A DNA stretch of 64,000 bases from a virus: IMG/VR virus record IMGVR_UViG_3300027377_000018; one strand, 5' to 3'. Within the stretch, counting starts at the first letter, position 1; each line of letters begins with the position of its first letter. The position numbers and the translations under genes were made by a program. The notes under the pieces were generated by a model. It had not been told where the DNA came from and ran no database searches. It worked only from the letters and a program-made list of their open reading frames with translations. Positions 4,680 to 26,258 of the stretch are shown one piece after another.

Positions 4680-4740
4680 ACGGACGAATTTGAAAGTTGC
4701 CCTTGCCGTGCCGACGCGATAGTCGGGGCCAGCCGATATG

Positions 4741-8975: not shown

Positions 8976-9934
8976 CAGGCGGCCTCCTTCCCGGCGCGCG
9001 AAGCGTAGTCGCTGGGCAGCCAGGAAAGGGCCGTCCCTTCGCCGATCTCGATGTTACGCACAACCTGCTTGAGGCCGGCAGTTTCCGACCACCGGAGAGC
9101 GCCCCCCGTTACATCGTCAAGTGAGGCGAGGCGGTCGGCCACATCGTTCTCGTCGAATTGAAATACGCGCCCGGGACTGCCCGGCGCGTGGGCGACCGCC
9201 TCGAAGGACAGCGTGGCGGCGTTGGGAAAGAAGCGAGCCCAGAAATCTACGAGGGCGTAGGCGAAAATGCCGTCTCCCAGAGTCGATTTCGGGCCACGCA
9301 CGAAGCGAAAGCCATCGTTCTTTCCTATGGCCCTTATGAGCCCCAATTCGGTGAGCGGCGATTCCAGGGCATCGTCGTGTCCGGTCTTGCCGGATGGTTG
9401 CCGCGCGACATAGGTGCGAATGAAACAGGCCACGTCATTCTTGAGCGTGGTCTGCGCAACCCGCGACCATCCGCGCTCATTCGCAAGGCGGTCGAGCTTT
9501 CGGATCAGGCTCTCACGTTCAAACGTAATGGCGGGATAATGGCTGAATGCCCAGAACCACGTGGTTCTTTCGGGTAGGGCTGCGAACTGCCAGTGCAGCA
9601 GCCACAAGGTGGCAGGATACTCCATCCACGGATCGAGTCCGCCTGCGCCGAATAGCAACCGGCCGAGTGTGGTCGTTTCGACCACGTTAGTGGCGGGTTC
9701 CCGGATGATGCGGGCCGCCTTCGCCCAATAGCGTATCGAGCTGACCATGTTCTTGCCGACGCCGAATCGCGCTATGGCATCGTCGTCCCAACACGCGACG
9801 CGGTTGTTGGCATCGGGCTCCGTCTCGGCGATGCGGTCGAACGCTTTTTTCAGCCACCCGTAGCGCAGCGGGAAGGTTTCGTGTCCCGAAAACTGCGGGC
9901 TGTAATCATTCTGAAAAAGCGGTCCGCGCGCCAT
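8975..9934 (-). CDS. sspB: DUF4007 protein, SspB-like
   Basis: FSGHETFPLRYGWLKK, FGVGKNMVSSIRYW, DPWMEYPATLWLLHW and LESPLTELGLI are DUF4007 signatures. Confidence 0.8.
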   Translation of the reverse strand: MARGPLFQNDYSPQFSGHETFPLRYGWLKKAFDRIAETEPDANNRVACWDDDAIARFGVGKNMVSSIRYWAKAARIIREPATNVVETTTLGRLLFGAGGLDPWMEYPATLWLLHWQFAALPERTTWFWAFSHYPAITFERESLIRKLDRLANERGWSRVAQTTLKNDVACFIRTYVARQPSGKTGHDDALESPLTELGLIRAIGKNDGFRFVRGPKSTLGDGIFAYALVDFWARFFPNAATLSFEAVAHAPGSPGRVFQFDENDVADRLASLDDVTGGALRWSETAGLKQVVRNIEIGEGTALSWLPSDYASRAGKEAA

Positions 9935-10088
9935 ATCTCCCCCGTAGCTACTGGATGATGCGTCCAGGTCGACTGTAGCCCGAATGGCGTGCTATGGTCA
10001 ATTGAACCTGGAGGCGTGCCCCAGAAACGGGCCGATGTCCGCAGGCGGGCGAGCTCAGGGCTTTCATCTTCTATGCTATTGAAAATAA

Positions 10089-11277
10089 ATGAAAATTGGA
10101 AACACGATATATCTCGACCATCAGGCGACCACGCCGGTAGATTTGCGTGTTCTTGCCGAAATGACGCCGTATTTCACCGAATCGTTCGGCAATCCGCATT
10201 CCGCCGATCACGCCCTCGGATGGGAAACATCGCGCGCCGTGGATGAGGCCGCCGCCCGAGTCGCGCGGTTGATCGGTGCGGACTCTGATGAAATCATCTT
10301 CACCTCGGGGGCAACGGAGTCCAACAACCTCGCCCTGTTGGGCCTTGCACGCCGTGCAGCTGGCGGCGAGCGTTGTCGTGTGCTGGTTGGCGCTGCCGAG
10401 CATAAATGCGTTCTGGCGGCCGGGCGTGCGCTCGAAGATCATCATGGTTTCAAAGTCGAGCGCCCTTCCGGTCAATTCGGAAGGTTTTGTGGAAACATCA
10501 ACACTTGAAGACTCGCTGGATGACGATGTTTTTCTTGTATCGATCATGGCTGTGAATAACGAGATCGGTACGATACAAGAAATAGAAAGTCTTTCGCGAA
10601 TCGTGAAGAGCTACGGAGCTTTGTTTCATTGCGATGCGGCGCAAGCTCCGGTCGCAATAGATTTGGGTTCTTTTGCAGAATACGTCGATACTATCAGTCT
10701 TTCGGCACACAAGATGTACGGACCAAAGGGAATCGGAGCCGTCTACGTCGCACGGGAACTGCAAGACCGGATCGAGCCGCTGATCTACGGCGGCGGCCAG
10801 CAGAACGGCTTGCGGTCGGGCACTGTGCCCGTCCCGCTCTGCGTCGGCATGGGAGCGGCGGCAGACATGTTGGCCGACGAAGCGGCGGACGAACAGCGAA
10901 AGGAATTGGGCAGCAAAAGAGACAGGTTCGTTGCCGGGCTGAATCGTCTTGTATGGCCGATCACGGTGAACGGCCCGGAAGGAAAAGCCCGGCATCCCGG
11001 CAATGCGAATATCCGGTTCACCGGGTTCGCAGCCCACGACATCATGGCTACCTTGCAGCCACACCTCGCGGCCTCGACCGGCTCGGCCTGCACAACGGGC
11101 ATACCGGAACCGTCGCATGTCCTTAAGGCCATCGGACTGACCAGCGATGAGGCCGAATCCTCGATCCGCTTCAGTCCCGGTTTCGCCACAAGCGATGATG
11201 ACATCGATGAAGCTGTGAACCGGATCAAAGAGGTGTTGGAGAAACTTTCGAAGGCCGAGTTGACGCGATCGGCCTGA
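10089..11277 (+). pseudogene. sspA: Cysteine desulfurase (IscS/DndA/SspA-like), +1 frameshift at ~10463-10465
   Basis: YLDHQATTP, FTSGATESNN and EHKCV in frame 1; MAVNNEIG, HCDAAQ, SAHKMYGPKG and STGSAC in frame 2. Removing one C from CCC at 10463-10465 gives a 395 aa ORF. Confidence 0.85.
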
Positions 11278-11987
11278 AGCGGTGCAGCCTGACGGCACCG
11301 GGGCGTTTATCGCCGGCGGTGCGGAAACGACGCGTGGCAGGTTTGAATGCCCCCAAGGCAACTGCGGCGTTAAAATACAAGACCGCATGGGGAGGACGCA
11401 TGGCGATCTCGAAAAACACGAAAAGCCAAATCGAGGCGGTTGCCGACAATACGTTAAGCACATTTGACGCAGTGGCTGACGCAGCCCGAACGCATCTGAG
11501 CGGCGCTGCGTCATCAACCGGCGCTGAAGCCTTTGCCAGCATCAACACTTTCACGTCCACAGACACTCTGCGATCCCAGGAAAAGATCTACCGGGAAAAT
11601 GTGGAGAGCTATCGTTTGCTCACGCATGAGCCGGCGATAGCGCGTGTCGCCGTATGCGACGAAGACGGCAAGAAGCTTGTCTATTACATCTGCCGAACAG
11701 CTCCGGTTCCGGTTGGCGACAAGGATGTAAGACTGGCGAGCTACAGGTCTCCAGTCGGGCGGCTAGCCGCCTTGTCCGTCGGTGATGAATTCACGGCCCG
11801 CATGGACGGTCAAAATGTTTCTGTGGAGATATTGGAGAAAGCACAGCTCCACCCGGCTTTGGTCGAGCAAGAGTGGGATTCCCGCAATACTGTGCTGGAA
11901 GGTGCTGATTACGGCTTCATTACGGTCGAGTCGTTTAGAGCCCTCCTTGGTCGCGGGGTTGCGGCAGAGCCCGACGCCACGCTCTTA

Positions 11988-12918
11988 GAGTCCGATTCAA
12001 AAGTTCATGTGAGATAACAGCATGTTATGAGTCTTCTGGTCACGAGTCTGATGCTGGCGATGTTGACCCATGCGATGGCGGTTTCGGTGGACTTCTCCCA
12101 ATCCTTTGCGAGCCTGCGGCATCGGTTGAGCCAGGCGAATGTGCGCTCGACCACCCACCGCCGGGGCAAGACCTCGAAGCCTCTTGCGTTCTCGGGGCGT
12201 TTGACGATCTCTACCGTCCAGTCGCCAAGCCTGTCCAGCGCATCGCATAGTTTTGGCCCGGCGTAGCCGCCATCGGCGAAGACATGACGCAGCCAGGGAA
12301 ACCGGTAACGGATGGCTTTGATGGGGCTTGGCGCGCCATCACGGTCCTGGATATCGGCGGCATGGACGATGACGAACAGCATCAAGCCGAGCGTATCGGT
12401 GATGATGTGACGTTTGCGCCCCTTGATCTTCTTGCCGGCGTCATAGCCCCGAATGCCGCCGCTTTCCGTGGTTTTCACACTCTGAGTGTCGATCACGCCC
12501 GCCGTCGGTTGAGCCTCGCGCCCCTCCAGCTCGCGAGTGGCCGCCACCAGAATGTGGTTGATCGTCTGCCAAAGCCCGCTGTCACGCCAGGCATAGAAAT
12601 AGCCGCGCACCGGGGAGACCGGCGGGAAGTCCTTCGGCAGCATCCGCCACGGTGTCCCACCGCCGGCCATATAGAGGATGGCGTTCATCACTTCGCGCAT
12701 GTCCGTCGTGCGAGGTCGGCCGCCCGTCTTCGCCGGAGGAATGAGCGGCGCCAACAACGCCCATTCCTCGTCCGTCAAATCGCTTGGATAGCGCAGACCG
12801 TCCCGGTCATGCTGTCGGCGAGTGACATCATTCCAGGGCATGCATTCCTCCATACCTTCTGAAAAGACGGTTGAATCACATCCCATTGATATCACTCAAC
12901 TACTTTTAAATCAGGCTC
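11988..12918 (-). mobile_element. IS5 family (IS1031-like) element, 931 bp, copy 1
   Basis: Imperfect IRs GAGTCCGATTCAAAAG / CTTTTAAATCAGGCTC; TTA target duplication at 11985-11987 and 12919-12921. Confidence 0.92.
12005..12841 (-). CDS. IS5-family transposase
   Basis: YPSDLTDEEW, GVIDTQSVK, GKKIKGRKRH, FADGGY and RWVVERTFAWL motifs. Likely ATG at 12841 after GGAGGA. Confidence 0.93.
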   Translation of the reverse strand: MPWNDVTRRQHDRDGLRYPSDLTDEEWALLAPLIPPAKTGGRPRTTDMREVMNAILYMAGGGTPWRMLPKDFPPVSPVRGYFYAWRDSGLWQTINHILVAATRELEGREAQPTAGVIDTQSVKTTESGGIRGYDAGKKIKGRKRHIITDTLGLMLFVIVHAADIQDRDGAPSPIKAIRYRFPWLRHVFADGGYAGPKLCDALDRLGDWTVEIVKRPENARGFEVLPRRWVVERTFAWLNRCRRLAKDWEKSTETAIAWVNIASIRLVTRRLITCCYLT

Positions 12919-15059
12919 TTAGAGCGGCAACTGGAAGAGGAACAGGAGTCCGCCAACCTTCTGGAGGGTCGGCGCCGCAGTGTCATCGAAAAGATGGGGT
13001 TGCGCGACCAACCGGTGCTCGACCGTTATCAGGATGAAATATTTCGTCTCCCGCTCAATAGCCGCCTTTTGATTCTCGGTGCCCCCGGAACCGGGAAAAC
13101 GACAACCTTGATCCGGCGTTTGGGACAAAAGCTCGACTTGGACGCATTGGATGAGAGCGAACAAAGGCTCGTTGATCGCTCCTCCGACGGCAGCGGCGTA
13201 GAACATGGGAAAAGCTGGATTATGTTCACGCCCACAGAGCTTCTGAGGCACTACGTCAAGGACGCGTTTGCGCGCGAGGACATAGCGGCACCGGACGAGC
13301 GCATCTGCACATGGGCCGATTTCCGCCGCCAGTTGGCCAGACGTGAATTCAGTGTACTCCGTTCATCTTCAGGTAGCGGGACGTTTGTTATGCGTGAACA
13401 CATACAAACGCTCTTGCCGGAGACGATAAGCGATCAGACCTCCTGGTTTTCGGACTTCGACAACTGGCAGAAGGCCTATTTTTGGCAAGAACTGCGCGAT
13501 ACAGCCGAACGCCTGTCCGGAGAGCCGAGGAAAGCGATTTCGACGCTCGGTGACCGCATCCTGTCTCTGATAGATGAAGGAGGCAAGGAACCGTCGGCGA
13601 CAGTACTTGTGGCGCTACAGCGGCTTGTTGCCGATATCCAGGCCCAGCTCTCCGAACTGAAGGCGGCCACGGACGAACGAATTCGCCGGTCGCTCAATCT
13701 CCAGGTCAACCGTGACCAGAATTTTCTGGACGAGCTGGCGAAATTCTTGGACAGCCTCGCGGATGTTGGTGATGATCCCGATGACTCGGAGTTGGACGAA
13801 GAGGAAGAGGCGGCACCTCCCAAGACGAGAAGAGCCGGCGCCGCCGCGGCATATGCAAGGGCCGCGCGATCTCAGGCGCGGAGTACGGCAACAAGGCGGA
13901 GCATCGGAGAAGCGACACGGTCAGGGCGCCTGATCGACTGGCTTGGGAACCGGCTTCCAGGCGAGGAAGACCGTCTCGAAGTTGGTCAAAGTCTGGTGGT
14001 GCAATCGCAATTGAGGCGGTTCGTCAATCCGGTTCGACGGTATATCGATGGCGTACCGTCACGATATCGACGCTTTCGGCGTGCACATCAGAATGAGAAG
14101 AAGTGGTATCTTCCCGACGGATACGCGGCGACGGATATTCACCCGCTCGAAGTCGATTTAGTTCTGCTGGCCCTATTGCGTGGAGCGGATGAGCTGGTCG
14201 ACAAGATTCGGCCCGCGAGCGGAGAAGATGCAGAAGAGAATCCGATGCTGGCGCGCCAACGCCAGCTCTATCGAAATCAGGTCCTGGTGGACGAGGCGAC
14301 CGATTTCTCGCCGTTGCAACTTGGCTGCATGGCGGCACTTACGCCCCCCGGTATCCGGTCGTTCTTCGCTTGTGGTGATTTCAACCAGCGCGTCACAAAC
14401 TGGGGCACCCGCTCGATGGAAGAGATGCAGTGGGTTCTGCCGGAAATTGCAGCCAAATCCGTCGCGGTGGCATACCGCCAAAGCACACAGCCTCATGAGC
14501 TGGCAAAGCAAATTGTGGTTCAGACCGGTGGCGACGCAACCGATGTCGTATTGCCGGGGTTCGTCGACAATGAAGGCGTCGCGCCGGTTCTGGCGACAAA
14601 CCTCTCGCAACAGGACGATGTAGTGGATTGGTTGGCGGGGCGTATCGTTGAGATTGAGAATTTTGTCCAACAACTGCCCTCCATTGCTGTCCTCGTAAAC
14701 GACGAACGGGACGTGACACCGCTTGCGACGGCCTTGGGCGAAGCGTTGGAGGAACAGAATATCCGCGTTCTGGCCTGTCCGAATGGCCAGGTGATGGGAT
14801 TGGAGAGCGATGTGAGGGTATTCGATGTCCAGCACATTAAAGGGCTGGAGTTCGAAGCCGTCTTTTTTGTCGGTGTCGATCGGCTCGCGCAAACATACCC
14901 CGACTTGTTCGACAAGTATTTGTATGTCGGCGCAACACGTGCAGCCACATACCTGGGGCTCACGTGCGAACAGCAGCTTCCGGAAAGCATCGCTGAATTG
15001 GCGCATCTGTTTGAGGAAAACTGGGAGTAGGTTCCCGGCCGCATCCACTCGACTATTGA

Positions 15060-15482
15060 TTATTTCGTACGTCCCGCGAACTTTTCTGCCGTCCGCATCG
15101 CCCCGAGGCCCAGGAGCGACAACAGCACGGTGACCAGCGTTTCGGTACCTGTCAGTTCCGGCAACGCCGTGACATGAGGGAAGTAATTGACGGTCACCCA
15201 GGTCAGCAGATCGAACAGGATAAAGTGCCAGAGCAACGCGAAGCCGCAGACCCAGCCGATAAAGGGCCGCCAGCCGGCGACGAAGATCGAGCGGTGGCCG
15301 GCCTCGATCTTGTTGAGCTCGATCTGAGCCAGGCTGGGTTTCATCATCAGCTTGGCCTTGATCACCTCGGCGGCACGCTTCTCGTCGTCGGTCTCGACGA
15401 ACTGATCGATGATGTTGGCGACGCCCTCGGCGGCAGACACGACGCCTCCGCTGACGATCGACCCGAATATCTTGCCCAGCAT
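15060..15482 (-). CDS. Holin (3TM, GTA-holin-like)
   Basis: FVAGWRPFIGWVCG motif and hydrophobic segments; adjacent to the endolysin. Confidence 0.8.
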   Translation of the reverse strand: MLGKIFGSIVSGGVVSAAEGVANIIDQFVETDDEKRAAEVIKAKLMMKPSLAQIELNKIEAGHRSIFVAGWRPFIGWVCGFALLWHFILFDLLTWVTVNYFPHVTALPELTGTETLVTVLLSLLGLGAMRTAEKFAGRTK

Positions 15483-15485
15483 GAC

Positions 15486-15878
15486 CTACTCCACGATCTC
15501 GAAATGCACGAGGTCGTCAAAACCGTTATCCCGGACCTCGGTGTCGCTGTCCCAGTCGCCACCCCAACGGAGGCCGACACCCATCGCCTTGGCGGTCGCC
15601 AGGACGAATCCGGCGAACAGCGTTTGCCGCTCCCGGTCATCCCAGACGACCGGATAGGGCGTCACGTCGACGGCCAAGGACGGCACGGTGTTGTGCTTGC
15701 CATTCGGCCAGCGGACCTTGCTCTTACCCTCCTCGACCATCCGGTTCTGGCGTTCCTTGTCCCGATGACCCTCCAGGATGGTGCAGTCGAAATGCCGGAT
15801 CACTTCGTGGAACACCCGCTGAAGACGGGGATCACAGGTGCCGAGCCTGGAGAGCGACTTATCGGAGAAACTCGGCAT
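15486..15878 (-). CDS. Endolysin, M15-family peptidase
   Basis: EGHR..., SLAVD and WGGDW...DLVHFE zinc-peptidase motifs. Real start ATG 15878 inside the longer listed ORF. Confidence 0.85.
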   Translation of the reverse strand: MPSFSDKSLSRLGTCDPRLQRVFHEVIRHFDCTILEGHRDKERQNRMVEEGKSKVRWPNGKHNTVPSLAVDVTPYPVVWDDRERQTLFAGFVLATAKAMGVGLRWGGDWDSDTEVRDNGFDDLVHFEIVE

Positions 15879-16165
15879 CAGTGACCTCCGAAAAGCTTGA
15901 GCTTGATGGCGATGCCGGCGATCAGCGCCAGGATTAAACCGGTGGTGACGAGGCGCACGACGGTCTGCCAGGCGGTGTGTCTGGCAATGCGAACGGCACC
16001 CAGCAGGGATCGCAGATCGCGGATGTCGCTCGCGGCCTCCTCGTCGACGAGACCGACGTCGGCCAGCGCCCGTTTGGCGCCGCGCTCCGCGGCCAGTTCC
16101 AGGTATTGCTCGAACTCTTCGACGGACATGCGCACATGCCCGTCCTCCATGGTTGGACGGTTCAT
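15878..16165 (-). CDS. Small membrane protein of the lysis cassette (DUF6127-like)
   Basis: AAERGAKRALADVGL...DLRSLL followed by a C-terminal TM helix. Confidence 0.65.
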   Translation of the reverse strand: MNRPTMEDGHVRMSVEEFEQYLELAAERGAKRALADVGLVDEEAASDIRDLRSLLGAVRIARHTAWQTVVRLVTTGLILALIAGIAIKLKLFGGH

Positions 16166-16216
16166 CCGATTTTCCTTTCGATGTTTGGGGGGTCGTGGCG
16201 GCGACTCGCCGCCCGA

Positions 16217-17518
16217 TCAGGCGTCGCGCCGCATCGGACCATCGATGGCGACGGCGACTTTGCCCGTGAGCATCCAGAGGGCGCCCGTGAGCATGGCGAG
16301 GTTGTAGGTGAAGCTGTTGTCGCAGCCGCGACGCCAGTACTCGCCCTCGAGATACATGCAGGCACCCTTGCAGAGCTGGACGACGGGACAGCGCCGGCAT
16401 TCCTCGCGCAGCGACCAGTGTGTCGCTGTCGTCAGGCGAACCTCGTCTAGGGCCTCGACGTGCCCGATCCGATGGGCGGCATCGCCGGTGTTCTGGCAGG
16501 TGTAGACGTTGCCCTTGAGGTCGACAGCAATGTTGTCGTCCCGGTCCATGCCGCACTTCTGGCCAAGCGTCGAAGCGGGCCGGGCCTGGGCCAGGGAATT
16601 GAACCAGTCCTGAAGCTTCATCCAGACGGTGGAGACGGCGAGTGCGCTGCCGTCCATGATCTCACCGAGGAGCGCCAGCCGGATCTGCTTGTGCTCCTCG
16701 TCCGTCGCCGGCGAGAGCATGAGCCCGCCCGGATCGTAGGGCAGCAGAAGCTCTTCGCTGCCGACCACAACGGATTGGTCGCCCATCGTTTCAACGAACC
16801 ACTCGCGTGCCGCAGCGAGGCTATAGTGGTCTCGGGTCAGGACCACATTGAACGAGACCTTGCCCTTGGGGTGCAGGCGGGCGAACAGTGCTCGTATCGC
16901 CGCTGCCTTATCCGGGTCGTCGAACGGATCGGGTCCGCGCAGGGCCTGGCCGGGCCCGTCGTGGGAGACCGCGACGGCGAAATCCAGGCGATCGACCCAA
17001 TCAATCCTTTCTTCGTCGAGCACTGATCCGTTGGTGATGACGGAGAGCTCTGCGTTCGGCCACCGGGTCTTTATGCCCTCGGCCAAGGGTTTCAGCTTCT
17101 TCCAGTAAACGAAGGGTTCTCCACCCCAGAATTGGACATTGGTGCCAGCGCCCTTGCCATCCCTGCCGCCATCCCACCAGGAACCCAGATTGGCAAGGAA
17201 CCGGCTGACATCGCCGAGGTCGGTCAGTTTCTCTTGCCCGACCTGGCTCGCCTGACCGCAATAGGCACAGGAGTAATTGCAGCGAAACCCCAGCGAGACC
17301 TTGAGCTTTCGAACGCTGTGCGTCTTTCGGCCGGGCTGGTCGGGGCTCACGGCCGTCGCCGTGTCCCACGCCCTTTCCTCGTCCGCATAAACGAAACCGG
17401 CCGGGGAGAGATCCACCGGCCGGCCGTCTTCGTGGGTCAGGAGGGACGCGTGCGGGTCATAAAGGAGCCGCTCGGTCGAGCCATCGGGTCCTTGCAGCGT
17501 GATGGTGTAGATTGGCAA
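16217..17518 (-). CDS. Radical SAM/SPASM-domain protein (rSAM-2)
   Basis: CNYSCAYC (CxxxCxxC), FWGGEP, ITNGS, and C-terminal CGM...YTCQ...CRRCPVVQLCKGAC...C. TTG start 17518 after AAGGAG. Confidence 0.92.
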   Translation of the reverse strand: MPIYTITLQGPDGSTERLLYDPHASLLTHEDGRPVDLSPAGFVYADEERAWDTATAVSPDQPGRKTHSVRKLKVSLGFRCNYSCAYCGQASQVGQEKLTDLGDVSRFLANLGSWWDGGRDGKGAGTNVQFWGGEPFVYWKKLKPLAEGIKTRWPNAELSVITNGSVLDEERIDWVDRLDFAVAVSHDGPGQALRGPDPFDDPDKAAAIRALFARLHPKGKVSFNVVLTRDHYSLAAAREWFVETMGDQSVVVGSEELLLPYDPGGLMLSPATDEEHKQIRLALLGEIMDGSALAVSTVWMKLQDWFNSLAQARPASTLGQKCGMDRDDNIAVDLKGNVYTCQNTGDAAHRIGHVEALDEVRLTTATHWSLREECRRCPVVQLCKGACMYLEGEYWRRGCDNSFTYNLAMLTGALWMLTGKVAVAIDGPMRRDA

Positions 17519-18509
17519 TGGATGCTCCTTCTTGTTCGGCGATCCAGGCGAATAGCTCGTGCTTGGCCTTGGCGAGCCGGCAATCGACATCGTGGGTCTG
17601 CGATAGGTGACAGTTGCCGCGGCATCAGCGGTTGATGGGGCAGCCCCGGCATTCGGCGGTATCGACGAACCGGCGAACGTGCCTTAGCGCCGCTGCGGTC
17701 TCGGGCGTTTCCGGCTCCGACTGGAACAGGTGGCCGGTCCGCAGGCTCCGGCGGACCGAGTGGTGGCAGCCATAACGATTGCCGGCGAGATCGACCGATA
17801 CGTGGTCGTCGGCGTGGCATAGGGGCGCCGGCGACCGGGAGGGCGCGCCGAGGGCTTTCCGCCATTTCGTGAGATGGCCTTCGAACATGCCGTGGGCATA
17901 GCGGTGGCCATCGAGACGAAGGCGGGCGAGTTCGCGAAGATGCGGCACGTGGCGATCGAGATCAGCGTGGGTCAGGTAGTAGGCGGGATCACAGCCCTCC
18001 GTTGCCCGTACCCAGTGCACATAGGGAAAGAACGGTCGCCCGAAACGTTGCTCCAGCCGGTCGAGGTCCCCGAACCACGGCCAGGCGAACAGATTCTGGT
18101 GCGTGAACAGGAACGAGACCGCCGAGTTCTGCAACCTCGCCACCTGGTCCCATCTCGGCTCGCCGAACGGTTGATGCCGGCTCACCACCACGTAGGCATC
18201 CCAGCGATTGAGGGCTTCGACGTGCCGATCCTCGAGCAGGCTACCGTTCGTCACCAGCTTGACGAAGGTGAGCGGAACGCCGGCCGCAATGAGCGCCTCG
18301 TGGATCGCCTCGATGGCCTCCCAATAGAGCAGCGGCTCCCCGCCCCAATAGGCGACCTCGGTGATGCCCTTCGCCTTCATGTAGGGAACGACCCGGTCGA
18401 CAAAGTCCTCGACCGGGTGCCGGCGCCTCTCCGCGTCGCCGCCCTTGGGGTCCTGGAGACAATAGGCGCAGCGGAAGTTGCAGGCATAGCCGAGAAAGAT
18501 GTTGAGCAC
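17457..18509 (-). pseudogene. Radical SAM/SPASM-domain protein (rSAM-1) with in-frame TGA at 17625-17627
   Basis: CNFRCAYC, YWGGEP, VTNGS. The SPASM motif reads CRGCPINR*CRGNC...C and the frame stays open to 17457. Confidence 0.85.
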
Positions 18510-18513
18510 GGGT

Positions 18514-19434
18514 TCAGCCCGCCACGGGAACCGCTACCCGGATCTCGGCCTCCGCTACACCGCTGAAGTGCCGGAACCCGGCCTTCAGGCGGATAGTATC
18601 GCCCGCCTCGAGGCCGAGCGCCATGAAGCGAAACGATGCCGTGCCCGCATCTACGGCCACACGCTGGTGCGGCAGGTATCCGCCGGTGGCCTCGAGAAAA
18701 ATCTCCGGTGCGGCGTCGCCGATCAGGCGGCCACGGCTGTTGACGACCTTCAGCCCGATGGTCGCCGTTTCCTCCGGTGCGATCGTGCTTGGCGCATCGA
18801 GCCTCAGGCTCGGCAGCGCCTTCCTGCCGATGGTCGGGATCTCGGCGGCGCTATGTTCGGCGCCGGGATCGAGATTACCGATGAGGCCGTAGTCCGGGTG
18901 CAACGTCAGACGGAAACTGCAGATGTCGAATTCGCAGGTCCTGAACGGAACGTAGACCTGAAGCGGCAGGTTCACGCCCGCCACCGCCAGTTGACGGGGG
19001 GCCGGCATCCGTGCGGCAAAGCTCACCGGATAGCGATTGAAGGGTGCCAGCGGCACGCCAGCTGTCCCGGCACAATAGGGAGTCGCCAACGGAAACATCC
19101 AGTTTCCGTGGTCCGACCACTCGGCCCGATCCTGCAGAGCATCGAGATCCAGGGCGACCGCGCCGAGGGCACAGAACAGTCGATCATCGAAGCGGCGGTC
19201 CAGCATGATGCCAGGCGTCGGGGTTCGGGCAGCATGAGCGGCAGGAACGATCCCGGCATGCTGCCCGACCTCGATCTCATGATCGGCTTCCGCTATTGGC
19301 TGACCGGTAAATCGCCCCACACCGTCGACGACTTCCTCGTATGTGCGGAGGGTGACCATACGCGGCGCGCGCAGCACCTCGATCAACAGCGGTACCGGCA
19401 GACCCCACATATGGGCCGTGAAAGGCGTAATCAT
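18514..19434 (-). CDS. Hypothetical protein with a beta-rich (Ig-like?) C-terminal domain, between tail fibre and rSAM genes
   Basis: 306 aa ORF with GAGGAG RBS, tightly packed (4-12 nt gaps) on both sides. Confidence 0.75.
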   Translation of the reverse strand: MITPFTAHMWGLPVPLLIEVLRAPRMVTLRTYEEVVDGVGRFTGQPIAEADHEIEVGQHAGIVPAAHAARTPTPGIMLDRRFDDRLFCALGAVALDLDALQDRAEWSDHGNWMFPLATPYCAGTAGVPLAPFNRYPVSFAARMPAPRQLAVAGVNLPLQVYVPFRTCEFDICSFRLTLHPDYGLIGNLDPGAEHSAAEIPTIGRKALPSLRLDAPSTIAPEETATIGLKVVNSRGRLIGDAAPEIFLEATGGYLPHQRVAVDAGTASFRFMALGLEAGDTIRLKAGFRHFSGVAEAEIRVAVPVAG

Positions 19435-19446
19435 CGAAGAAGCTCC

Positions 19447-20301
19447 TCAGGCATCGCCGCAATCGCAGTTGCAATTGCAATAAGTGCAGTAGCTGCAATA
19501 GGAGCAGTACGAGCAGTAGGACATGCAGTTGTAGTTGACCCGCTGGAACGCGAGCCGGACCTGCGTCGCAGAGACCTGCTCCATCGTGTAGCTGTAGTAA
19601 TAGAAACTGCCAGAGCCAGTGGTCCCGGCGTCTCGCGCGCTGCCCACGGACGCATAGCCCTTGTTGAAGAGCGCAGCGAGGTCTGTGGCGTCGGCGATCT
19701 TAAAGCCGGTGGCGCCCGCGTTTCCCTGGGACTTGACGCTGGGCGCGACAAGCTCTCCAGTCATCGTGTCGCCGGCCTTGGCGACCCGACCCGATTGATC
19801 GACCCCCGCCTGGATATCCGCCACTGGCGTGGTGGCGGCATCGGAAAGCCCGAGCGTGCTACGCTGGGCCGCCGCATTGGCGTCGTCGAGCAGCGCCTTG
19901 CCGGCGGGCGTGACCGGCACCGCCTGGGCCTGACCGTCGCCGGTGCGTTCGATGAGACCGGTTCCGGTCAATCCGGCAACGGCCGTGAGGTCTGCATCCT
20001 TTGCCTGATAGGCCGTGTCGTGGTTGTGGCCGATGGCGGCGAACAGCGCCTGCGCCTCTTCCTTGGAAAGATAGCTCTTGGATAGATCGGCGATGACAAC
20101 CCAGACATCGGGCCCCGTGCTCTTGAGCTGATAGAGCTTCTGCTCATCGGTCCTGAGACAGAGCATGCCCGCTTGCGCGCCCGCCGTGGGGAAGGTGGTG
20201 CCCGAAAAGCAGGACGCCACCGCATCATCGCGATCGAGGATCTTCTGACGGCTGTTCTGCAGGGAGTCAGTCGAGGGAATGTCGGGATAATTCTGCGCCA
20301 T
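19447..20301 (-). CDS. Tail-fibre-like protein with C-terminal Tyr/Cys repeat
   Basis: GHNHD, ALLDDANAAAQRSTLGL and RVAKAGDTMTG fibre motifs; ends NYNCMSYCSYCSYCSYCTYCNCNCDCGDA. Confidence 0.75.
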   Translation of the reverse strand: MAQNYPDIPSTDSLQNSRQKILDRDDAVASCFSGTTFPTAGAQAGMLCLRTDEQKLYQLKSTGPDVWVVIADLSKSYLSKEEAQALFAAIGHNHDTAYQAKDADLTAVAGLTGTGLIERTGDGQAQAVPVTPAGKALLDDANAAAQRSTLGLSDAATTPVADIQAGVDQSGRVAKAGDTMTGELVAPSVKSQGNAGATGFKIADATDLAALFNKGYASVGSARDAGTTGSGSFYYYSYTMEQVSATQVRLAFQRVNYNCMSYCSYCSYCSYCTYCNCNCDCGDA

Positions 20302-20310
20302 CGATAGCTC

Positions 20311-21327
20311 CTAGTATCCGAGGGCCGACCAGCTGACGGTGCCGGCGACGAGGGTCACGCCGTCCGCCGCATCGAACAGCCGGACGTCGAAGCCCGTGGT
20401 CGTGATCGCGGTGATCTCGGGCAATGCCGGCGTGGCGCCAGCCTTCAGCGTCACCTGCACCTCCGGCGGCTCCGTAAAGCCACGGTTGAAAGCGACCGTG
20501 CCCCCCGTCACTGGAACGCTTGCCGTGCCCCGGTCACGCACGTCGGGGACATCGACGTTGAAAACCGCATCCGCGATCGCGACCCGCTCTCCGGTCACGG
20601 GCGCCGAGAGCAAGAGGCCAATCAGGGCCTTTGCATACTCGTAGTCTCCGGGAACAAGATCGCGGAACGGCCCATAGCCGAGCGGGCCCTTCGCCACTAC
20701 CAGATCCCGGAAGCCCGTCTCGTCCAGGGGCGTCGAACGCACCGCCAGATCGGCAAGTACGGCGTTGGCGTGCCGCAGCAGCGCATCCACGAGCGCGAGA
20801 GCCTCGAAGGAGAGGCGAGCGGACGTCTTCGCCTCCGTATCCGTCAGTGCAACCGTTTCTGGGAGATCGCGCCGGAAGGCGGTAGGCCGCTCGAGCGCAT
20901 CCGCCAGCGCCAACGGCTCTATGGAGTTCTTGGCTGGAAAGCTGGCTCGCATATCCACCAGGCCGAATGCCGCGGCCTCGGGATGCTGGGCGATTTTCGC
21001 CGCGACCTCGCCGAGCGCCAGGTTCTCGGCGACCGACAGGATGAAGTTGATGTAGTCGAGATAGGTTTCCGCAATGGCCAGGGTCCGACGCCTATGGACC
21101 AGGATCTCCCCGATCCGCACATCCGCAAGGGCAAGCGTGGATGAGGCGAGCGGTCCCGCGATCCGAGCAGCCATCCCGGCGACCGGCAGAGCTTCACCGG
21201 CATCCGCGGCATAGTCGGACACATGTGCCCCTGACCATTCCTTGTCGGCCTCGACGTCCTGCCAGTCGAAGACCGAGGTCACCCAGGTATAAGCAGCACC
21301 CGGCGTCTCGGTGATATGAACCGACAT
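20311..21327 (-). CDS. Tail-associated repeat protein with a C-terminal lectin-like beta domain
   Basis: Eight LALAD-like repeats; C-terminal FNRGFTEPPEVQVTL...TTTGFDVRL. Confidence 0.6.
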   Translation of the reverse strand: MSVHITETPGAAYTWVTSVFDWQDVEADKEWSGAHVSDYAADAGEALPVAGMAARIAGPLASSTLALADVRIGEILVHRRRTLAIAETYLDYINFILSVAENLALGEVAAKIAQHPEAAAFGLVDMRASFPAKNSIEPLALADALERPTAFRRDLPETVALTDTEAKTSARLSFEALALVDALLRHANAVLADLAVRSTPLDETGFRDLVVAKGPLGYGPFRDLVPGDYEYAKALIGLLLSAPVTGERVAIADAVFNVDVPDVRDRGTASVPVTGGTVAFNRGFTEPPEVQVTLKAGATPALPEITAITTTGFDVRLFDAADGVTLVAGTVSWSALGY

Positions 21328-21329
21328 GA

Positions 21330-21788
21330 TCAAGACATCGTGAAGGTGAACTTCTGGGTCAGTGTGTCGTCGACACCCTTGTTGATGACGGCGAACACGA
21401 CGCGGTCGAGCATGGTGCCGGCCGTGGCGGCGTTGAACACACCGGCCTCGGTGATGGCGCCGGTGGCCTCGCCCGGATCGAAGGTGGTCTCGAAGGTGAA
21501 CACTTTGGTTCCCGCCGTATGGGCGTAGGTGGCGGACTTGCGGGCGAGTTCAGTGCCGAGGGCCGTATCCCCGGCGGCGGCTGCGACGGCCCCGGTGCCG
21601 ACGGCGATGTGACCCATGGCCCCCGGTCGACCGGAGGAAAGTCCGATGACGTCGGCGATGAAGTCGAAGCCGACATCGACGATCAGATTGTCCTTCCGCC
21701 GCACGACAATCTCACCGTTGGCGCGGTACAGGCGCAGCTCTACCGCCCCCCTCAGGCGCAAACCCGAGGGCAGGTCTCTTCTGTTCAT
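21330..21788 (-). CDS. Phage tail-associated protein
   Basis: NLIVDVG...HIAVGTG...ITEAGVFNA...MLDRVVF, a motif set common in tail distal genes. Confidence 0.65.
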   Translation of the reverse strand: MNRRDLPSGLRLRGAVELRLYRANGEIVVRRKDNLIVDVGFDFIADVIGLSSGRPGAMGHIAVGTGAVAAAAGDTALGTELARKSATYAHTAGTKVFTFETTFDPGEATGAITEAGVFNAATAGTMLDRVVFAVINKGVDDTLTQKFTFTMS

Positions 21789-21799
21789 GATGTTCTCCG

Positions 21800-24700
21800 T
21801 TAAGGGTAGAGCCGCAGCTCGTCGAAGGCGCCGAGCGGTGCGAGAGATTGACTGGCGCTCGCCACATCACCCGTCTTCCAGGACGCGGCGTGCAGGGCGC
21901 GCTCCGTCGCCGACTGGGAGACCCCGAAAGTGACGATGTCGCCGGCGATCCGCGCGAGGGTCAGTCCGACCCGGTTGCCGAGATGGTCTTCGAGGTAATA
22001 GATGCCGACATTCGGATCGTAGCCGAGGCTCAGGGCGCCGGAGCCCCCGGACCAGACCAGGTAGATTTGCGGCTCCTCCAGCAGTTCATCGAAGCGAAGA
22101 TCGAACGTCGCCGAAAACTCCGCCGGCACGCTCAGGGGCCAGGCGACCTGAGTGGTGTCACGAACCTCAAGTCCTTTGGCGAAGCGGGCATCGCCATAAC
22201 CGAGCCCCAGCGTTTTCGACGCTGCGGTTCCGTTGATCCCTCCCGTTTGCTCATCGAGCGTGAAACCCTCGACGAGGTCGTTCGCGGGCGGCTGCTCGAG
22301 GGCGATCACGGTCCGCAGTTCGGCCCCATCGGCATCGCCCACCGGTAGCCACGGCGCATTCGCCTGGACCGCGTCCCACGCGAAGTTCGCGTCGGACCAG
22401 GCCGGCGGGTCGGCCGGGATGGCGACGATGCCGGATGCCAGCCAATTGCGCGCCCGGAAGATCTTGGCGAGATCGGCCTTGAAATAGTGTGCGCCCTTGG
22501 GCGCATTCACACCGCCGCTGCGCGCCAATGCCAGGAGGCCGTCGGTCACGACCTCGAGCTCATGGCTGACACCTGGCCAACCGAGCGCCTTTCGGTCGCT
22601 CAGCACGATGACGTTGCGATCGGACAACGGCGCCAACCGCGTCGTGGCAAAGGTAGCGTTATGGCTGTAGAGCCCGGCGGCCGAGACCGCCTTGCACCAG
22701 AAGGTCTCATCGGCGGGCATCTGAACTGGCCAGAGCGCCACCAGATGGTCCCCGGCGGACCGACCGACGAACCGCCCTTGCCCCCAGCTCTCGCCCGCAC
22801 GGATCTCATATTCGACACCGGCGATGGGCAGCGAGGTCCACGAGAAGCGGACATGTTCCCCCTGGGGAACCGCATCGAAGCCCGTGACATCGGCGGGCGG
22901 CACTACGGACGCGACCACGCTGACGGCGCTGACGCTTCGAAGCCCGAGCTCGTCGACAGCGCGAATGTGAAACCGATGATCTTCGGCATCGGCCAACCCC
23001 ACGAACAGGGAGGTGCCGCGATGCCGGGTGGTCACCACGGTGCCGACATCCCAGGACTCGCCATCCCGGATCTCGTAACCGACCACATCGAGTGCGCTGA
23101 CGGGATTCCAGGAAAGCTGCACGCCATCGGCCCGACGCGTCGTCTGGAAGTTGATTACGTCAGAGGGCTGCGTGGTCTTGCCCACCACAACGTGGCCGAG
23201 AACCTCCGTCCACTCGGAGGCCAGGCCTTCGCGACTCACCGACCGAAGGCGGATGTCGTAGGCGACACCATCCTCGACCGGCTGCACCGCGATCTCACCC
23301 GATGCCGACGGCGCCGGCGGCAGAACACGCCATTGCTCGGCGCTTCCCGCGAGACGGTAATGGGCATGAATGTACTCGGCCGGGTCGTTCAGTCCCGCGT
23401 TCAAGGCCACCCGGACCACGATCCGAGATTGCGTGCGACCGTCCGCGCCGACAACGAGGACGCTTTCATCGGATACCACCTCATCCACGACGGGGGCCGC
23501 CGGCGTCTGGCGCTCGACCAGCGGCGGCAACGTCATCAGCGAATCGAAGTCGGGAATGGGACCGGTATCCGCCTGGTGAACCTCCGGCGCCGCGTCGACC
23601 AGGGTCAGCGTGGCGCGGAAGTCGCCTGAGTGACGGATCGCCTTGACGATCAGGTCGACACTCTCTCGGGCTGCCTCGCCGAAGAGCGCAAGGTCGCCCA
23701 ACTCCGGCGATGCCATCGCCGGGACGGGCTGGAGAAACGCGAGGGTGTCGGTCTCACCCGCCTGCGTGACGACACTCGCGACGCTGCTGACGCCGTCCGC
23801 ATGGCGGAAGCGGACGGCATAGGTCTTGCCCGCCTCCATGGCGACCACGTCATCGAGCGTGGCCGAGGTCGCATCGCCAGTGGCGTCGAAGGCAACGTCC
23901 TTGACCCGTCCCCAGCCGCCGCCCCAGAGCGGCACGTCGTGGCTGACCTTGACCAGATCGCCAGCCGTGCAGACCAGGTGGTCGATGTCGACGGAGATCT
24001 CGTAGGTCTCGGGCCGTAGCTTGCCGACCGCCAGATGATAGCGCCCGTGCTTCCAGGCGAGATCGGCGCTGGTGCAGCCGAAGAGTTCCAGGGTCTCGAA
24101 GCGGCTCGAGTTCGTCTCGCTGTAACCGTCCGCGTAGACGATCACCTCGTCCTGTTGCCAGTCGCGATCCGGATTGACGAAGCGGCACTTGAGGCCGTGG
24201 GGGATCTTGGTGAAGGCCTTGATACCCCGGAACCCCATCGTGTTGCGCGGCGTGAAGTGCTGGATCGGCACCGATTGTGCTACGTCGCGGACGATCGAGA
24301 ACTTGCCGTCCCGCATGCCGAACCCGGCCCGACCCGCGGCTGCAATGTCGCGCATCAGCTCGAACACGGTGGTCGGGTAGTCGATGACCGCATCGAAGGT
24401 GAACTCAGGCGTCGCATCAGCCCAGGTCTTGAAGGTACCGAGATCGAGCCGCTCGTCGGACACCGGCCGCCTGTTGGCCGCGCCGCGCAACACATCGAGA
24501 TAAGCCCAGGCCGGATGACGTGTCGCCTGTTCGATCCACTGCCCGCCATCCCAGACCGGCAGAAGGGCCTGCGTCACCGCCGAAAACTGATTGACGATGC
24601 CGTTCAGTTGATCTGTTGCCTTGATACGCATGGCGACGAGGCAGCGGCCAGCCGCCTTCACGGGCACGGTGTGCTGGACGGTTCGGATCGCCGAGACGAG

Positions 24701-25864
24701 GCTGTCGTCGCGGATACGGGTCGAGGTGTTGTCTGCGGTCAGCCTGGTGAAACGAACCTCGTAGCGACCGCTCGCGGGCGTCACAATGCGCACGCCCCTG
24801 CGGACGACCTGCTCGGTCGCCGCCGTGTAGGTCGCGGTGGCATGCTCAGTCCATGGATCGGATGACCCGGCGAGCCGGTACTCGACCTTGATATCGACGG
24901 AGCGATCCTGCCGGTTGCCGCTGTCATCGAAGCGAACCAGGCCGCGGAAGGTGATGTCGGCGATGATCTCGTCAGCGCCGTCGCGGGTCTCCAGGACCTC
25001 CGGACCGCCATCGCTGGTGATCTTCAGCGAGTACTGATCCTCGCGAATGGTGTCGGTGTAGAGCGTGATCGGTGCGTCAGACGCATAACCCTGCCGGATC
25101 TCGGTCTCCACGCCCTCGAACTGGGCCAGCGGGATGGCGCCGATACGCAAATCCGAGAGTTCCAGGGGCCCGTAGCCGAAGTCGAACAGCATGCGCAGAT
25201 ACTGAGCGTCACCCTCGACCTCGGTGTGCGGATGGGCCGCCAGGGTCGGAAACACCCGGTGGCGGCCGTAGACGCGCGGTACGGACCCGTATCGGTTGGC
25301 GCGGTTCTGCGTGCCGGTGATCGCGAGCGTCGGGCTGGTGCGGCTCTGCGGACCACCGATCGAAAGCTCGGCGAGCTTAGGTCTCGGCGGTGGTGCGATG
25401 GCGTTGACGATCAGGTTGCCGACCAGCGTGATCGCCGCACCGCCGATGGCGGAGGCCAGATTGATGGTCTGGCCGAAGATCACCGCTTCGGTGGGCAGCC
25501 CCATGGCCGCGCCGACGGCCGGCCCCAGCACGAAGGCGGCGGCCACCACGGCGATGGTCAGGATGGTGCGAAGCGGGTTCTTGCCGCCCCCGCCGCCCTT
25601 GCCCGGCGCGACCCGAAGGGTGACCACGGCGCCGGCTTTGGGACGCACGCGCGCCCATCGGTCCCGAGGCACCATGACCGGGTCGTCGGTCATCGCCCCA
25701 TCCGTGATCCAGACATGGGCATGGGCCACGAGGATTGGGTCGAGCCCGAGCGAATCCATGATGTCGGCGATGGAACCGCCCACCGGCACGGCGCGATCGA
25801 TGCGCTCGGCGGAAAACGGGCGCGGGCAGGCGATCAGCCGCAGAGCGTTTTCGTCAACCATCAT
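21800..25864 (-). CDS. Host-specificity/tail tip protein (gpI+gpJ-like, FN3 domains)
   Basis: gpI-like N-terminus, YGSVPRVYG, TipJ-like core (HPAWAYLDVL, YHLA..KLRPE), FN3-like repeats. Start probably ATG 25864/25861. Confidence 0.85.
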   Translation of the reverse strand: MMVDENALRLIACPRPFSAERIDRAVPVGGSIADIMDSLGLDPILVAHAHVWITDGAMTDDPVMVPRDRWARVRPKAGAVVTLRVAPGKGGGGGKNPLRTILTIAVVAAAFVLGPAVGAAMGLPTEAVIFGQTINLASAIGGAAITLVGNLIVNAIAPPPRPKLAELSIGGPQSRTSPTLAITGTQNRANRYGSVPRVYGRHRVFPTLAAHPHTEVEGDAQYLRMLFDFGYGPLELSDLRIGAIPLAQFEGVETEIRQGYASDAPITLYTDTIREDQYSLKITSDGGPEVLETRDGADEIIADITFRGLVRFDDSGNRQDRSVDIKVEYRLAGSSDPWTEHATATYTAATEQVVRRGVRIVTPASGRYEVRFTRLTADNTSTRIRDDSLVSAIRTVQHTVPVKAAGRCLVAMRIKATDQLNGIVNQFSAVTQALLPVWDGGQWIEQATRHPAWAYLDVLRGAANRRPVSDERLDLGTFKTWADATPEFTFDAVIDYPTTVFELMRDIAAAGRAGFGMRDGKFSIVRDVAQSVPIQHFTPRNTMGFRGIKAFTKIPHGLKCRFVNPDRDWQQDEVIVYADGYSETNSSRFETLELFGCTSADLAWKHGRYHLAVGKLRPETYEISVDIDHLVCTAGDLVKVSHDVPLWGGGWGRVKDVAFDATGDATSATLDDVVAMEAGKTYAVRFRHADGVSSVASVVTQAGETDTLAFLQPVPAMASPELGDLALFGEAARESVDLIVKAIRHSGDFRATLTLVDAAPEVHQADTGPIPDFDSLMTLPPLVERQTPAAPVVDEVVSDESVLVVGADGRTQSRIVVRVALNAGLNDPAEYIHAHYRLAGSAEQWRVLPPAPSASGEIAVQPVEDGVAYDIRLRSVSREGLASEWTEVLGHVVVGKTTQPSDVINFQTTRRADGVQLSWNPVSALDVVGYEIRDGESWDVGTVVTTRHRGTSLFVGLADAEDHRFHIRAVDELGLRSVSAVSVVASVVPPADVTGFDAVPQGEHVRFSWTSLPIAGVEYEIRAGESWGQGRFVGRSAGDHLVALWPVQMPADETFWCKAVSAAGLYSHNATFATTRLAPLSDRNVIVLSDRKALGWPGVSHELEVVTDGLLALARSGGVNAPKGAHYFKADLAKIFRARNWLASGIVAIPADPPAWSDANFAWDAVQANAPWLPVGDADGAELRTVIALEQPPANDLVEGFTLDEQTGGINGTAASKTLGLGYGDARFAKGLEVRDTTQVAWPLSVPAEFSATFDLRFDELLEEPQIYLVWSGGSGALSLGYDPNVGIYYLEDHLGNRVGLTLARIAGDIVTFGVSQSATERALHAASWKTGDVASASQSLAPLGAFDELRLYP

Positions 25865-26258
25865 GGCGATAGAGTCCCAGGACACGACGGCGCCACTTGG
25901 CGCCGTCATAAGGTTCAAGACAGGCGTCGATGCCGTCCTCGATGTGCAGCATCCATCCGATGGCAACGACGACGCCCACATGCATGGGCTGGTTCATGAG
26001 GCGCATGAGAACCACATCACCTGGCCGCTCCGCGCCGGGCGGCACCGGATGCCACGGGCCCATCTCGCCCCGGATCAGACGGCCGATATCCTTGGCGTCC
26101 TCGACGGAGGCATAACCGTCGGCGTAGGACGGCAGCCGCCTTCCGAATTGATCGGCGAGCACGAGCCGGACGAGGCCCCAGCAATCGACGCCTTCCCGGT
26201 CGCGGCCATGCGCCTTGAACGGCAGGCCGACATAGGCGTTCACCCAACTGGGCAACAT
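25854..26258 (-). CDS. NlpC/P60 tail assembly protein (gpK-like)
   Basis: GVDCWGLVRLV and HVGVV...MLH catalytic C/H. Confidence 0.88.
   Translation of the reverse strand: MLPSWVNAYVGLPFKAHGRDREGVDCWGLVRLVLADQFGRRLPSYADGYASVEDAKDIGRLIRGEMGPWHPVPPGAERPGDVVLMRLMNQPMHVGVVVAIGWMLHIEDGIDACLEPYDGAKWRRRVLGLYRHDG

Follow-up and report, generated by a model that had tools for sequence, protein, structure and literature searches.

Introduction

To our knowledge, the substrates described for radical SAM (rSAM)/SPASM maturases are small peptides that are secreted and a single dehydrogenase subunit. CteB is a thioether synthase that acts on a Cys-rich peptide, and QhpD cross-links Cys to Asp or Glu within a subunit of quinohemoprotein amine dehydrogenase, which stays in a larger assembly. 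This study describes a prophage gene block on the IMG/VR virus record IMGVR_UViG_3300027377_000018, a stretch of 64,000 nucleotides that is called the window below. The block encodes P0001, a tail-fibre-like protein with a dense run of cysteines at its C-terminus (the Cys tail), the accessory protein P0002, and two rSAM enzymes, rSAM1 (P0004) and rSAM2 (P0005). On balance, we favour the reading that the Cys tail is the substrate of a phage-encoded maturation cassette, which would build a thioether ladder at the tip of the fibre. The fibre gene and the cassette comprise the following features:

19447..20301, minus strand: P0001, tail-fibre-like protein of 284 amino acids (aa), the C-terminus of which is the Cys tail (open reading frame (ORF), translation, position in the tail module, homology)
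19477..19527, minus strand: five units of a small residue followed by Tyr-Cys (Cys259 to Cys275), the "YCS" repeat (kept in close relatives, with variants)
19459..19479, minus strand: Cys-x-Cys block from Cys275 to Cys281, with Asn, Asn and Asp as spacers; this core is universal in the tail family (upstream tail in 80 of 87 rSAM2 loci)
19450..19458, minus strand: terminal Gly-Asp-Ala; the Cys-x-Asp end co-varies with the presence of rSAM1 (locus comparison)
18514..19434, minus strand: P0002, accessory protein of 306 aa with an N-terminal beta domain and a C-terminal Ig-like domain (conservation, AlphaFold2 (AF2) model)
17625..18509, minus strand: rSAM1 (P0004), radical SAM enzyme truncated by a TGA at 17625-17627 (Cys-x3-Cys-x2-Cys, PF04055)
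17457..17624, minus strand: open remainder of rSAM1 past the nonsense codon, 55 codons with the last three SPASM cysteines (in-frame translation)
16217..17590, minus strand: rSAM2 (P0005), radical SAM/SPASM enzyme of phrog_1802 (PF04055; phrog_1802, E 1e-51; TIGR04085)

Several described systems share parts of this arrangement. The streptococcal RaS-RiPP system NxxcB/NxxcA (RiPP, a peptide made on the ribosome and modified after translation) also combines an rSAM/SPASM enzyme with an Asn...Cys motif. NxxcB forms a thioether between the sulfur of Cys and the beta carbon of Asn and tolerates Ala, Gln and Asp as the acceptor (PMC9389541), and these acceptor residues correspond to the spacer residues of the phage tails. 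In contrast to NxxcB, the phage substrate would be the end of a 284-aa putative virion protein and not a short leader-core peptide, and Cys and Asn alternate directly and many times in it; the likeness rests on the substrate and not on a specific sequence kinship.

The substrates of PapB, which makes freyrasin (Cys-x3-Asp), and of CteB have C-terminal cores that are rich in Cys and in which Cys...Asp/Thr motifs recur. rSAM2 aligned with CteB (5WGG) over its full length, SPASM domain included (E 2e-23), PapB was among the top NCBIfam matches for both rSAM enzymes, and the Cys-x-Asp end of the phage tail recalls the Cys to Asp link of PapB. However, the phage scores were far under the family cut-offs, the phage genes lie in a structural operon, and the N-terminal domain of rSAM2 did not align with the recognition domain of CteB. 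The QhpD/QhpC system resembles the phage locus in having an rSAM/SPASM enzyme and a protein substrate, putative in the phage, that is kept in an assembly. The QhpD model TIGR03906 was one of the top five matches for rSAM2, although it matched only over the rSAM core (43.7 against a cut-off of 453), and the substrate and setting are different. The triceptide synthases YhhB, HaaB and HtkB have precursors with repeated aromatic-X-X motifs, in which Tyr and His are donors (PMC11499958). They differ from the phage system in that no family-level match was obtained, the middle residue of the phage units is always Cys, and most phage loci of the family lack such units.

Anatomy and Conservation of the Cys Tail

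The reverse complement of positions 19459-19527 encodes Cys259 to Cys281 of P0001, and the coding strand is the minus strand. A plus-strand ORF of 528 aa (18499-20085) was rejected, as homology was found entirely on the minus strand. The original prediction, which had been made from the sequence of the window, counted nine Cys in 23 residues, and this count was confirmed; there are only 2 Cys in the remaining 261 residues, and the last 26 residues of P0001 contain nine of its 11 cysteines. The spacing of the tail is, in order, one Cys-x3-Cys, four Cys-x2-Cys (units Ser/Thr-Tyr-Cys) and three Cys-x-Cys, followed by Gly-Asp-Ala and the stop codon, in agreement with the switch from two spacer residues to one that the original prediction had noted. 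Codon readout gave TCC, TCG, TCC and AGC for Ser and TAC, TAC, TAT, TAC and TAT for Tyr, exactly the synonymous divergence that had been listed, while each Cys is encoded by TGC. Tandem Repeats Finder detected no 9-bp array; its only signal was a weak period of 6 bp (score 32) within the Cys-x-Cys part. Recent DNA slippage as the origin of the repeat was rejected because the repeat codons have diverged and no 9-bp array was found; the original prediction had argued the same from the codons.

The N-terminal two thirds of P0001 were similar to gp028 of Achromobacter phage JWF, and its middle part was similar to annotated tail-fibre proteins of Rhizobium phages. The PHROG matches of P0001 to tail-fibre and structural proteins were weak (fibre E 0.006), and the tail itself matched no family in Pfam, NCBIfam or PHROG. 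An AF2 monomer model of the whole fibre had a predicted local distance difference test (pLDDT) score of 38.7 and was unusable. Judged from its context of tail and lysis genes, P0001 belongs to the fibre-type structural proteins and is no small precursor peptide. A classical RiPP has a short leader precursor and releases a small product; here, the carrier has 284 aa and a conserved N-terminal anchor domain and is encoded in a tail operon, and PHROG and Pfam scans of the window proteins found no protease or exporter gene in the cassette.

To quantify selection, nonsynonymous (pN) and synonymous (pS) polymorphism was calculated from five equal-length relatives for the 28 tail codons and for the rest of the fibre gene. 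The tail codons had a pS of 0.35 and a pN of 0.011 (ratio 0.03), and the remainder of the gene had a pS of 0.42 and a pN of 0.053 (ratio 0.13). By this comparison, purifying selection is stronger on the tail than on the fibre body, which bears out the original prediction that selection acts on the repeat at the protein level. The codon changes seen in the tail among relatives were TAC/TAT, TGC/TGT, ACT/ACC, GAT/GAC and GGC/GGG, and the sole freely varying position was the residue after Gly-Asp (A, M, N, R or GP). The tail was kept in the close relatives L003, L004, L018-L021 and P0012-P0014, the rSAM2 proteins of which are 71-95% identical.

The Tail Family in Other Phage Loci

A profile of rSAM2 detected at least 552 confirmed IMG/VR stretches, from which 80 loci were kept, and further loci were obtained by single-sequence scans of viral and genome collections. 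The 87 loci counted are those with at least 2.5 kb upstream of the rSAM2 homolog. A same-strand upstream ORF with an alternating Asn/Asp/Ala-Cys run at or near its end was present in 80 of them. The window carries the same cassette, with an Asn/Asp/Ala-Cys-tailed fibre ORF, a P0002-like gene and an rSAM2 homolog on one strand, and the gene context thus supports the earlier remark that the Cys tail lies beside rSAM/SPASM enzymes. Over 68 distinct tails, the spacers of Cys-x-Cys were Asn (68%), Asp (15%), Ala (10%) and Tyr (1%). In loci without rSAM1, 32 tails terminated exactly on Cys. The original prediction had made the conservation of both Tyr and Asn/Asp among homologs a test of its reading; the Asn/Asp-Cys part was strongly conserved, and the Tyr part was found in the clade of the window and in the loci L106 and L123 only. 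The same module is present in two cultured phages, JWF of Achromobacter (gp028-gp030) and RSP15 of Ralstonia (gp045-gp048).

In seven fibres from six loci (L001, which is phage JWF, L005, L058, L070, L078 and L093), the Asn-Cys run does not end the protein: a Hint domain with Cys as its first residue follows directly. The Hom_end-associated Hint family (PF05203) scored above its cut-off in JWF gp028 (L001, 3856-5307) and in L058. If such a self-cleaving domain is removed, the run before it would become the new C-terminus. No description of a Hint domain used in this way in a fibre was found in literature searches, which mostly did not cover subscription journals. The two fibres of this type in L058 lie one behind the other, and both carry a Hint domain; in L058 (3052-4242), a collagen triple-helix repeat (PF01391) leads directly into the Asn-Cys tail. 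This collagen repeat fits an arrangement in which three parallel tails would lie side by side.

Some loci encode small tailed proteins. In large phage contigs (L013-L016, about 3500-12500), a small Asn-Cys-tailed protein and a second Cys-rich protein with Cys-Thr-Thr-x-x repeats were found together with a row of four or five different rSAM/SPASM genes. In L068 (2474-3425), L098/L099 (2374-3548) and L008/L022 (3318-3785), two or three tandem small genes (76-167 aa) precede one rSAM gene, and each small gene ends in its own Asn/Ala-Cys run. The tandem arrangement suggests several interchangeable fibre-tip proteins that may be served by one enzyme.

Units of a small residue followed by Tyr/His-Cys were confined to the clade of the window and two other lineages, L106 and L123. 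Within the clade, one Tyr is His in P0012, one unit is missing in P0013, and the last units are altered in P0014 and L004; the variants in close relatives include Ser to Ala, Thr or Asn, and the aromatic position is Asn in P0014. The sister clades of the window fibre have short aromatic insertions (Phe-Asn-Cys-Tyr-Ser-Asn-Cys) within long Asn-Cys runs. L106 is a P2-like myovirus prophage in which a 241-aa fibre ends with Tyr/His-Cys units, one of them His-Cys-Gly, and then Cys-x-Cys; the locus encodes a homolog of P0002 (29% identity) and a single rSAM enzyme, of the rSAM2 type. The Tyr units therefore need no second enzyme. In L123, the fibre has three units, and it is accompanied by a P0002 homolog (33% identity) and by two rSAM2-type paralogs that are 40% and 42% identical to P0005, with no rSAM1. 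The simplest reading of these alignments is that Tyr (or His) occupies the place held elsewhere by Asn, directly before each Cys.

The rSAM Enzymes

The Cys-x3-Cys-x2-Cys cluster motif was present in both rSAM enzymes, with PF04055 scores of 48.9 and 31.1 against a cut-off of 29.5. rSAM2 probably starts at the TTG at 17518-17516 (433 aa), six bases past a GGAG; the TTG and the GGAG were conserved in relatives, and the annotated-style ATG (17590) falls inside the rSAM1 frame. Its SPASM domain was complete (TIGR04085, 38.9 against a cut-off of 27). Besides CteB, the full-length PDB profile alignments of rSAM2 were with 8VPO (E 5e-25) and, SPASM domain included, with anaerobic sulfatase-maturating enzyme (anSME; 4K37, E 1e-20). 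The nearest NCBIfam models of rSAM2 were peptide maturases, namely nif11-type, PapB, geopeptide, QhpD, YhhB and anSME. The PapB model NF047865 (cut-off 340) gave 52.6 for rSAM2 and 39.2 for rSAM1, and the SCIFF maturase model TIGR03974 (cut-off 425) gave 35.8 and 25.9, respectively, so that neither enzyme reached the curated cut-offs.

Where four relatives have CGC TGG TGC in the SPASM motif of rSAM1, with TGG encoding Trp, the sequence of the window is CGC TGA TGC. The rSAM1 of the window is 294 residues long and is missing the final three SPASM cysteines and thus a complete SPASM domain, in contrast to the intact relatives, which carry the full seven-Cys SPASM pattern. When translation was continued past the TGA, the frame matched the intact 350-aa homolog of L021 to its end. 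The TGA may have arisen by one recent substitution, may be an error in the sequencing, or may be read through at a low level. Because of the nonsense codon, rSAM1 is probably inactive in this prophage.

Genes of the rSAM1 type, counted at 30-40% identity or more over the full length, were found in a minority of loci only. A Cys-x-Asp followed by 0-4 residues was the end of the tail in 20 of 20 loci that had rSAM1 and a visible tail, the observed ends being Gly-Asp-x, Cys-Asp-Ala, Arg-Asp and Asn-Asp. The same end was seen in only 4 of 61 loci without rSAM1, and those four have other extra rSAM genes. A scan seeded with rSAM1 added three more agreeing lineages, with tails ending in Ser-Asp, in Thr-Asp-Asp-Ser before a Hint-like domain, and in Gly-Asp-Asp, as well as one exception, L108, which is taken up below. 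A simple Fisher test of rSAM1 against the Cys-x-Asp end gave p 2e-15, but the loci are related, and the result from independent contrasts is preferred for this reason. On the rSAM2 tree, there were seven independent contrasts in the presence of rSAM1; the Cys-x-Asp end agreed in 5, opposed in 0 and was unchanged in 2. Several rSAM1-bearing fibres have no Tyr units at all. These comparisons point to the terminal Cys-x-Asp, and not the Tyr block, as the element that travels with rSAM1.

Gene Neighbourhood and the Accessory Protein P0002

The genes of the prophage block are all on the minus strand, in the order gpJ-like protein, two tail proteins, P0001, P0002, rSAM1, rSAM2, endolysin and holin. 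Neighbouring genes overlap or are separated by a few bases (12-nt gaps). The flanking features are as follows:

20311..25981, minus strand: upstream tail genes (profile and family matches; conservation in related loci)
21800-25981, minus strand: gpJ-like central fibre, 1393 aa (phrog_31, E 1e-137)
21330-21788, minus strand: 152-aa protein (phrog_5417)
20311-21333, minus strand: 340-aa protein (conserved upstream of the fibre)
15060..16556, minus strand: lysis genes downstream, endolysin (phrog_465) and gene transfer agent (GTA)-type holin (PF11351) (family matches)

P0002 homologs were located between the fibre and the rSAM gene in 63 sampled loci, and they were also present in L106 and L123. 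The AF2 model of P0002 had a pLDDT of 82 and consists of beta-sandwich domains. Foldseek searches of this model against PDB and BFVD returned only generic beta-sandwich domains and uncharacterised phage proteins and no enzyme-like neighbour, and P0002 matched no family in Pfam, NCBIfam or PHROG. A complex prediction of P0002 with fibre residues 215-284 had a score of 0.00, which weighs neither way.

The 340-aa and 152-aa proteins are also kept upstream of the fibre in related loci, the 340-aa protein in 36 of them. The C-terminus of the 340-aa protein had a weak match to an H-type lectin domain (PF09458, 18.7 bits), under the cut-off of 24. Downstream, the longest endolysin ORF (15486-16556) shares about 340 bases with the end of rSAM2. 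The true start of the endolysin is probably downstream of 16217, because the peptidase match covers only residues 224-355. A scan of 14800-22000 for promoters and terminators found nothing above shuffled expectation.

Proposed Mechanism and Alternatives

The observed anatomy, conservation, gene linkage and selection of the tail can be combined into the following model. The Cys tail would be the C-terminal, presumably distal, end of a prophage tail fibre, and the maturation cassette would consist of P0002 as an accessory beta-sandwich protein, rSAM2 and, in this lineage, rSAM1. The alternating Asn/Asp/Ala-Cys run would be the ancestral and universal element of the substrate and would be required at or near the C-terminus. 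The Ser/Thr-Tyr-Cys units would be a lineage-specific elaboration of this run, in which Tyr (rarely His) replaces Asn and one small residue is added. rSAM2 would abstract a hydrogen from a carbon of the residue adjacent to Cys and join this carbon to the cluster-bound sulfur of Cys. The product would be a thioether ladder, either within a chain or between the three fibre chains, that stiffens or staples the tip. rSAM1 would most likely act on the terminal Cys-x-Asp and not on the Tyr units. By analogy with NxxcB, PapB, CteB and QhpD, thioether cross-linking is the most likely reaction, because the acceptor set of NxxcB (Asn, Ala, Gln and Asp) matches the spacer residues of the phage tails.

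A bolder form of this proposal is offered tentatively, as we consider it possible but somewhat doubtful. The fibre tip would be radically welded by a thioether (or mixed thioether and aromatic) ladder made by rSAM2, possibly between chains; rSAM1 would close a ring at Cys-x-Asp; the tail would be a modular, enzyme-specific code; and the Tyr-Cys variant would display aromatic residues to the host receptor.

Several points weigh against the thioether ladder. Seven of the 87 loci had no tail within reach, and L108, which ends in Cys-Ser-Cys-Gly, is an exception to the rule that links rSAM1 to Cys-x-Asp. The sign test on the contrasts gave p 0.06, which is the minimum reachable value, so that significance is out of reach. 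Every curated maturase family was far under its cut-off for rSAM2, and only the generic SPASM model was passed. Sequence kinship does not settle which reaction takes place, since the top PDB match of rSAM2 is 8VPO, a protein with a radical SAM core domain that a paper on radical SAM cyclopropyl synthases cites (PMC10878394). In L123, a Tyr-Cys tail occurs together with two rSAM2 paralogs, so that a second enzyme for the Tyr units is possible in some lineages. That the tail lies at the distal end of a trimer is an assumption based on how fibres are generally built. Finally, the covalent modification of the tail is something that we infer, and so are its status as a substrate, the thioether chemistry and the assignment of enzymes to sub-motifs.

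In the original prediction, each rSAM enzyme could have a sub-motif of its own, for example as follows: Tyr-x-x units would become three-residue cyclophanes, with the Tyr ring joined to the beta carbon at +2, by one enzyme, and Cys-Asn and Cys-Asp would become thioethers by the other. The five Tyr-Cys-x units do fit the aromatic-X-X register of triceptides, and Tyr and His, the residues at the aromatic position, are both known donors (PMC11499958). rSAM/SPASM cyclophane synthases exist, and two of the three unit-bearing lineages (the clade of the window and L123) have two rSAM enzymes. Yet L106 bears the units with one rSAM enzyme only, and its His-Cys-Gly unit ends in Gly, which has no beta carbon; the aromatic position can be Asn, as in P0014. 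The rSAM1 type is common to many Tyr-less fibres, where it tracks the Cys-x-Asp end, and the rSAM1 gene of the window has a stop codon. Neither rSAM enzyme reached the cut-off of a cyclophane-synthase family: the scores were 42.6 against 445 for YhhB (NF041707) and 32.6 against 370 for FxsB (TIGR04269), over the rSAM core only. The division of the tail into one sub-motif per enzyme thus does not match the comparative data, and cyclophane formation in the Tyr units, though chemically feasible, is considered unlikely.

The tail might instead bind metal, as a thiolate cluster of Zn, Fe or Cu, or form a disulfide knot (interchain, after lysis), either of which would hold a trimeric tip together, with the rSAM enzymes acting non-covalently or delivering or shaping a cluster. 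Metallothionein-like sites typically contain Cys-x-Cys runs, iron is bound in other phage fibres via His-x-His motifs, and collagen helices have Cys knots at their ends. In P0001, a His-Asn-His motif lies upstream of the tail, the swap of Tyr to His retains a possible metal ligand, and the collagen-like helix right before the tail in L058 recalls the collagen Cys knots. However, a simple metal or disulfide site could form without an enzyme of its own, and the tail adjoins an rSAM/SPASM gene in 80 of the 87 loci. Asn and Ala together account for 78% of the spacers and are poor ligands, and the variants with a Hint domain argue for a chemically defined C-terminus. A metal site or disulfide knot is accordingly regarded as unlikely, but as a serious alternative to a covalent thioether ladder or a feature that may accompany it.

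A reaction of rSAM2 on the cysteines themselves, either to formylglycine, the product of anSME, or through another oxidation at the beta carbon, which would leave reactive aldehydes and no cross-links at the tip, is very unlikely: anSME was one of the best full-length structural relatives, and the GenBank record of phage JWF labels the homolog as an anaerobic sulfatase-maturating enzyme, but the sulfatase motif (Cys/Ser-x-Pro/Ala-x-Arg) is absent from the tail, the anSME model TIGR03942 scored 41.3 against 349.45, and nine adjacent aldehydes would be chemically unusual.

Conclusions

No paper describing this system of fibre tail and rSAM enzymes was found, nor any report of an rSAM/SPASM maturase acting on a structural protein of a virus particle; given the coverage of the literature stated above, this is weak evidence of absence. 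The new elements are the Tyr/His-Cys variant with its distribution, the second rSAM type linked to a terminal Cys-x-Asp, and the nonsense codon in rSAM1. The putative maturation of a virion fibre by rSAM/SPASM enzymes would be a known kind of reaction applied in a new place. The comparative rules, which connect the Asn-Cys core with rSAM2 and Cys-x-Asp with rSAM1 and describe the Tyr/His-Cys variant and the tails that Hint domains would expose, give predictions that are open to mass spectrometry. The cassette is present in the culturable phages JWF and RSP15, which can be used for genetics. Covalent cross-linking of the fibre tip, if real, would add a new kind to the known ways in which virions mature, with consequences for the stability of the fibre, for receptor binding and for host range, and hence for the engineering of phage receptor-binding proteins.

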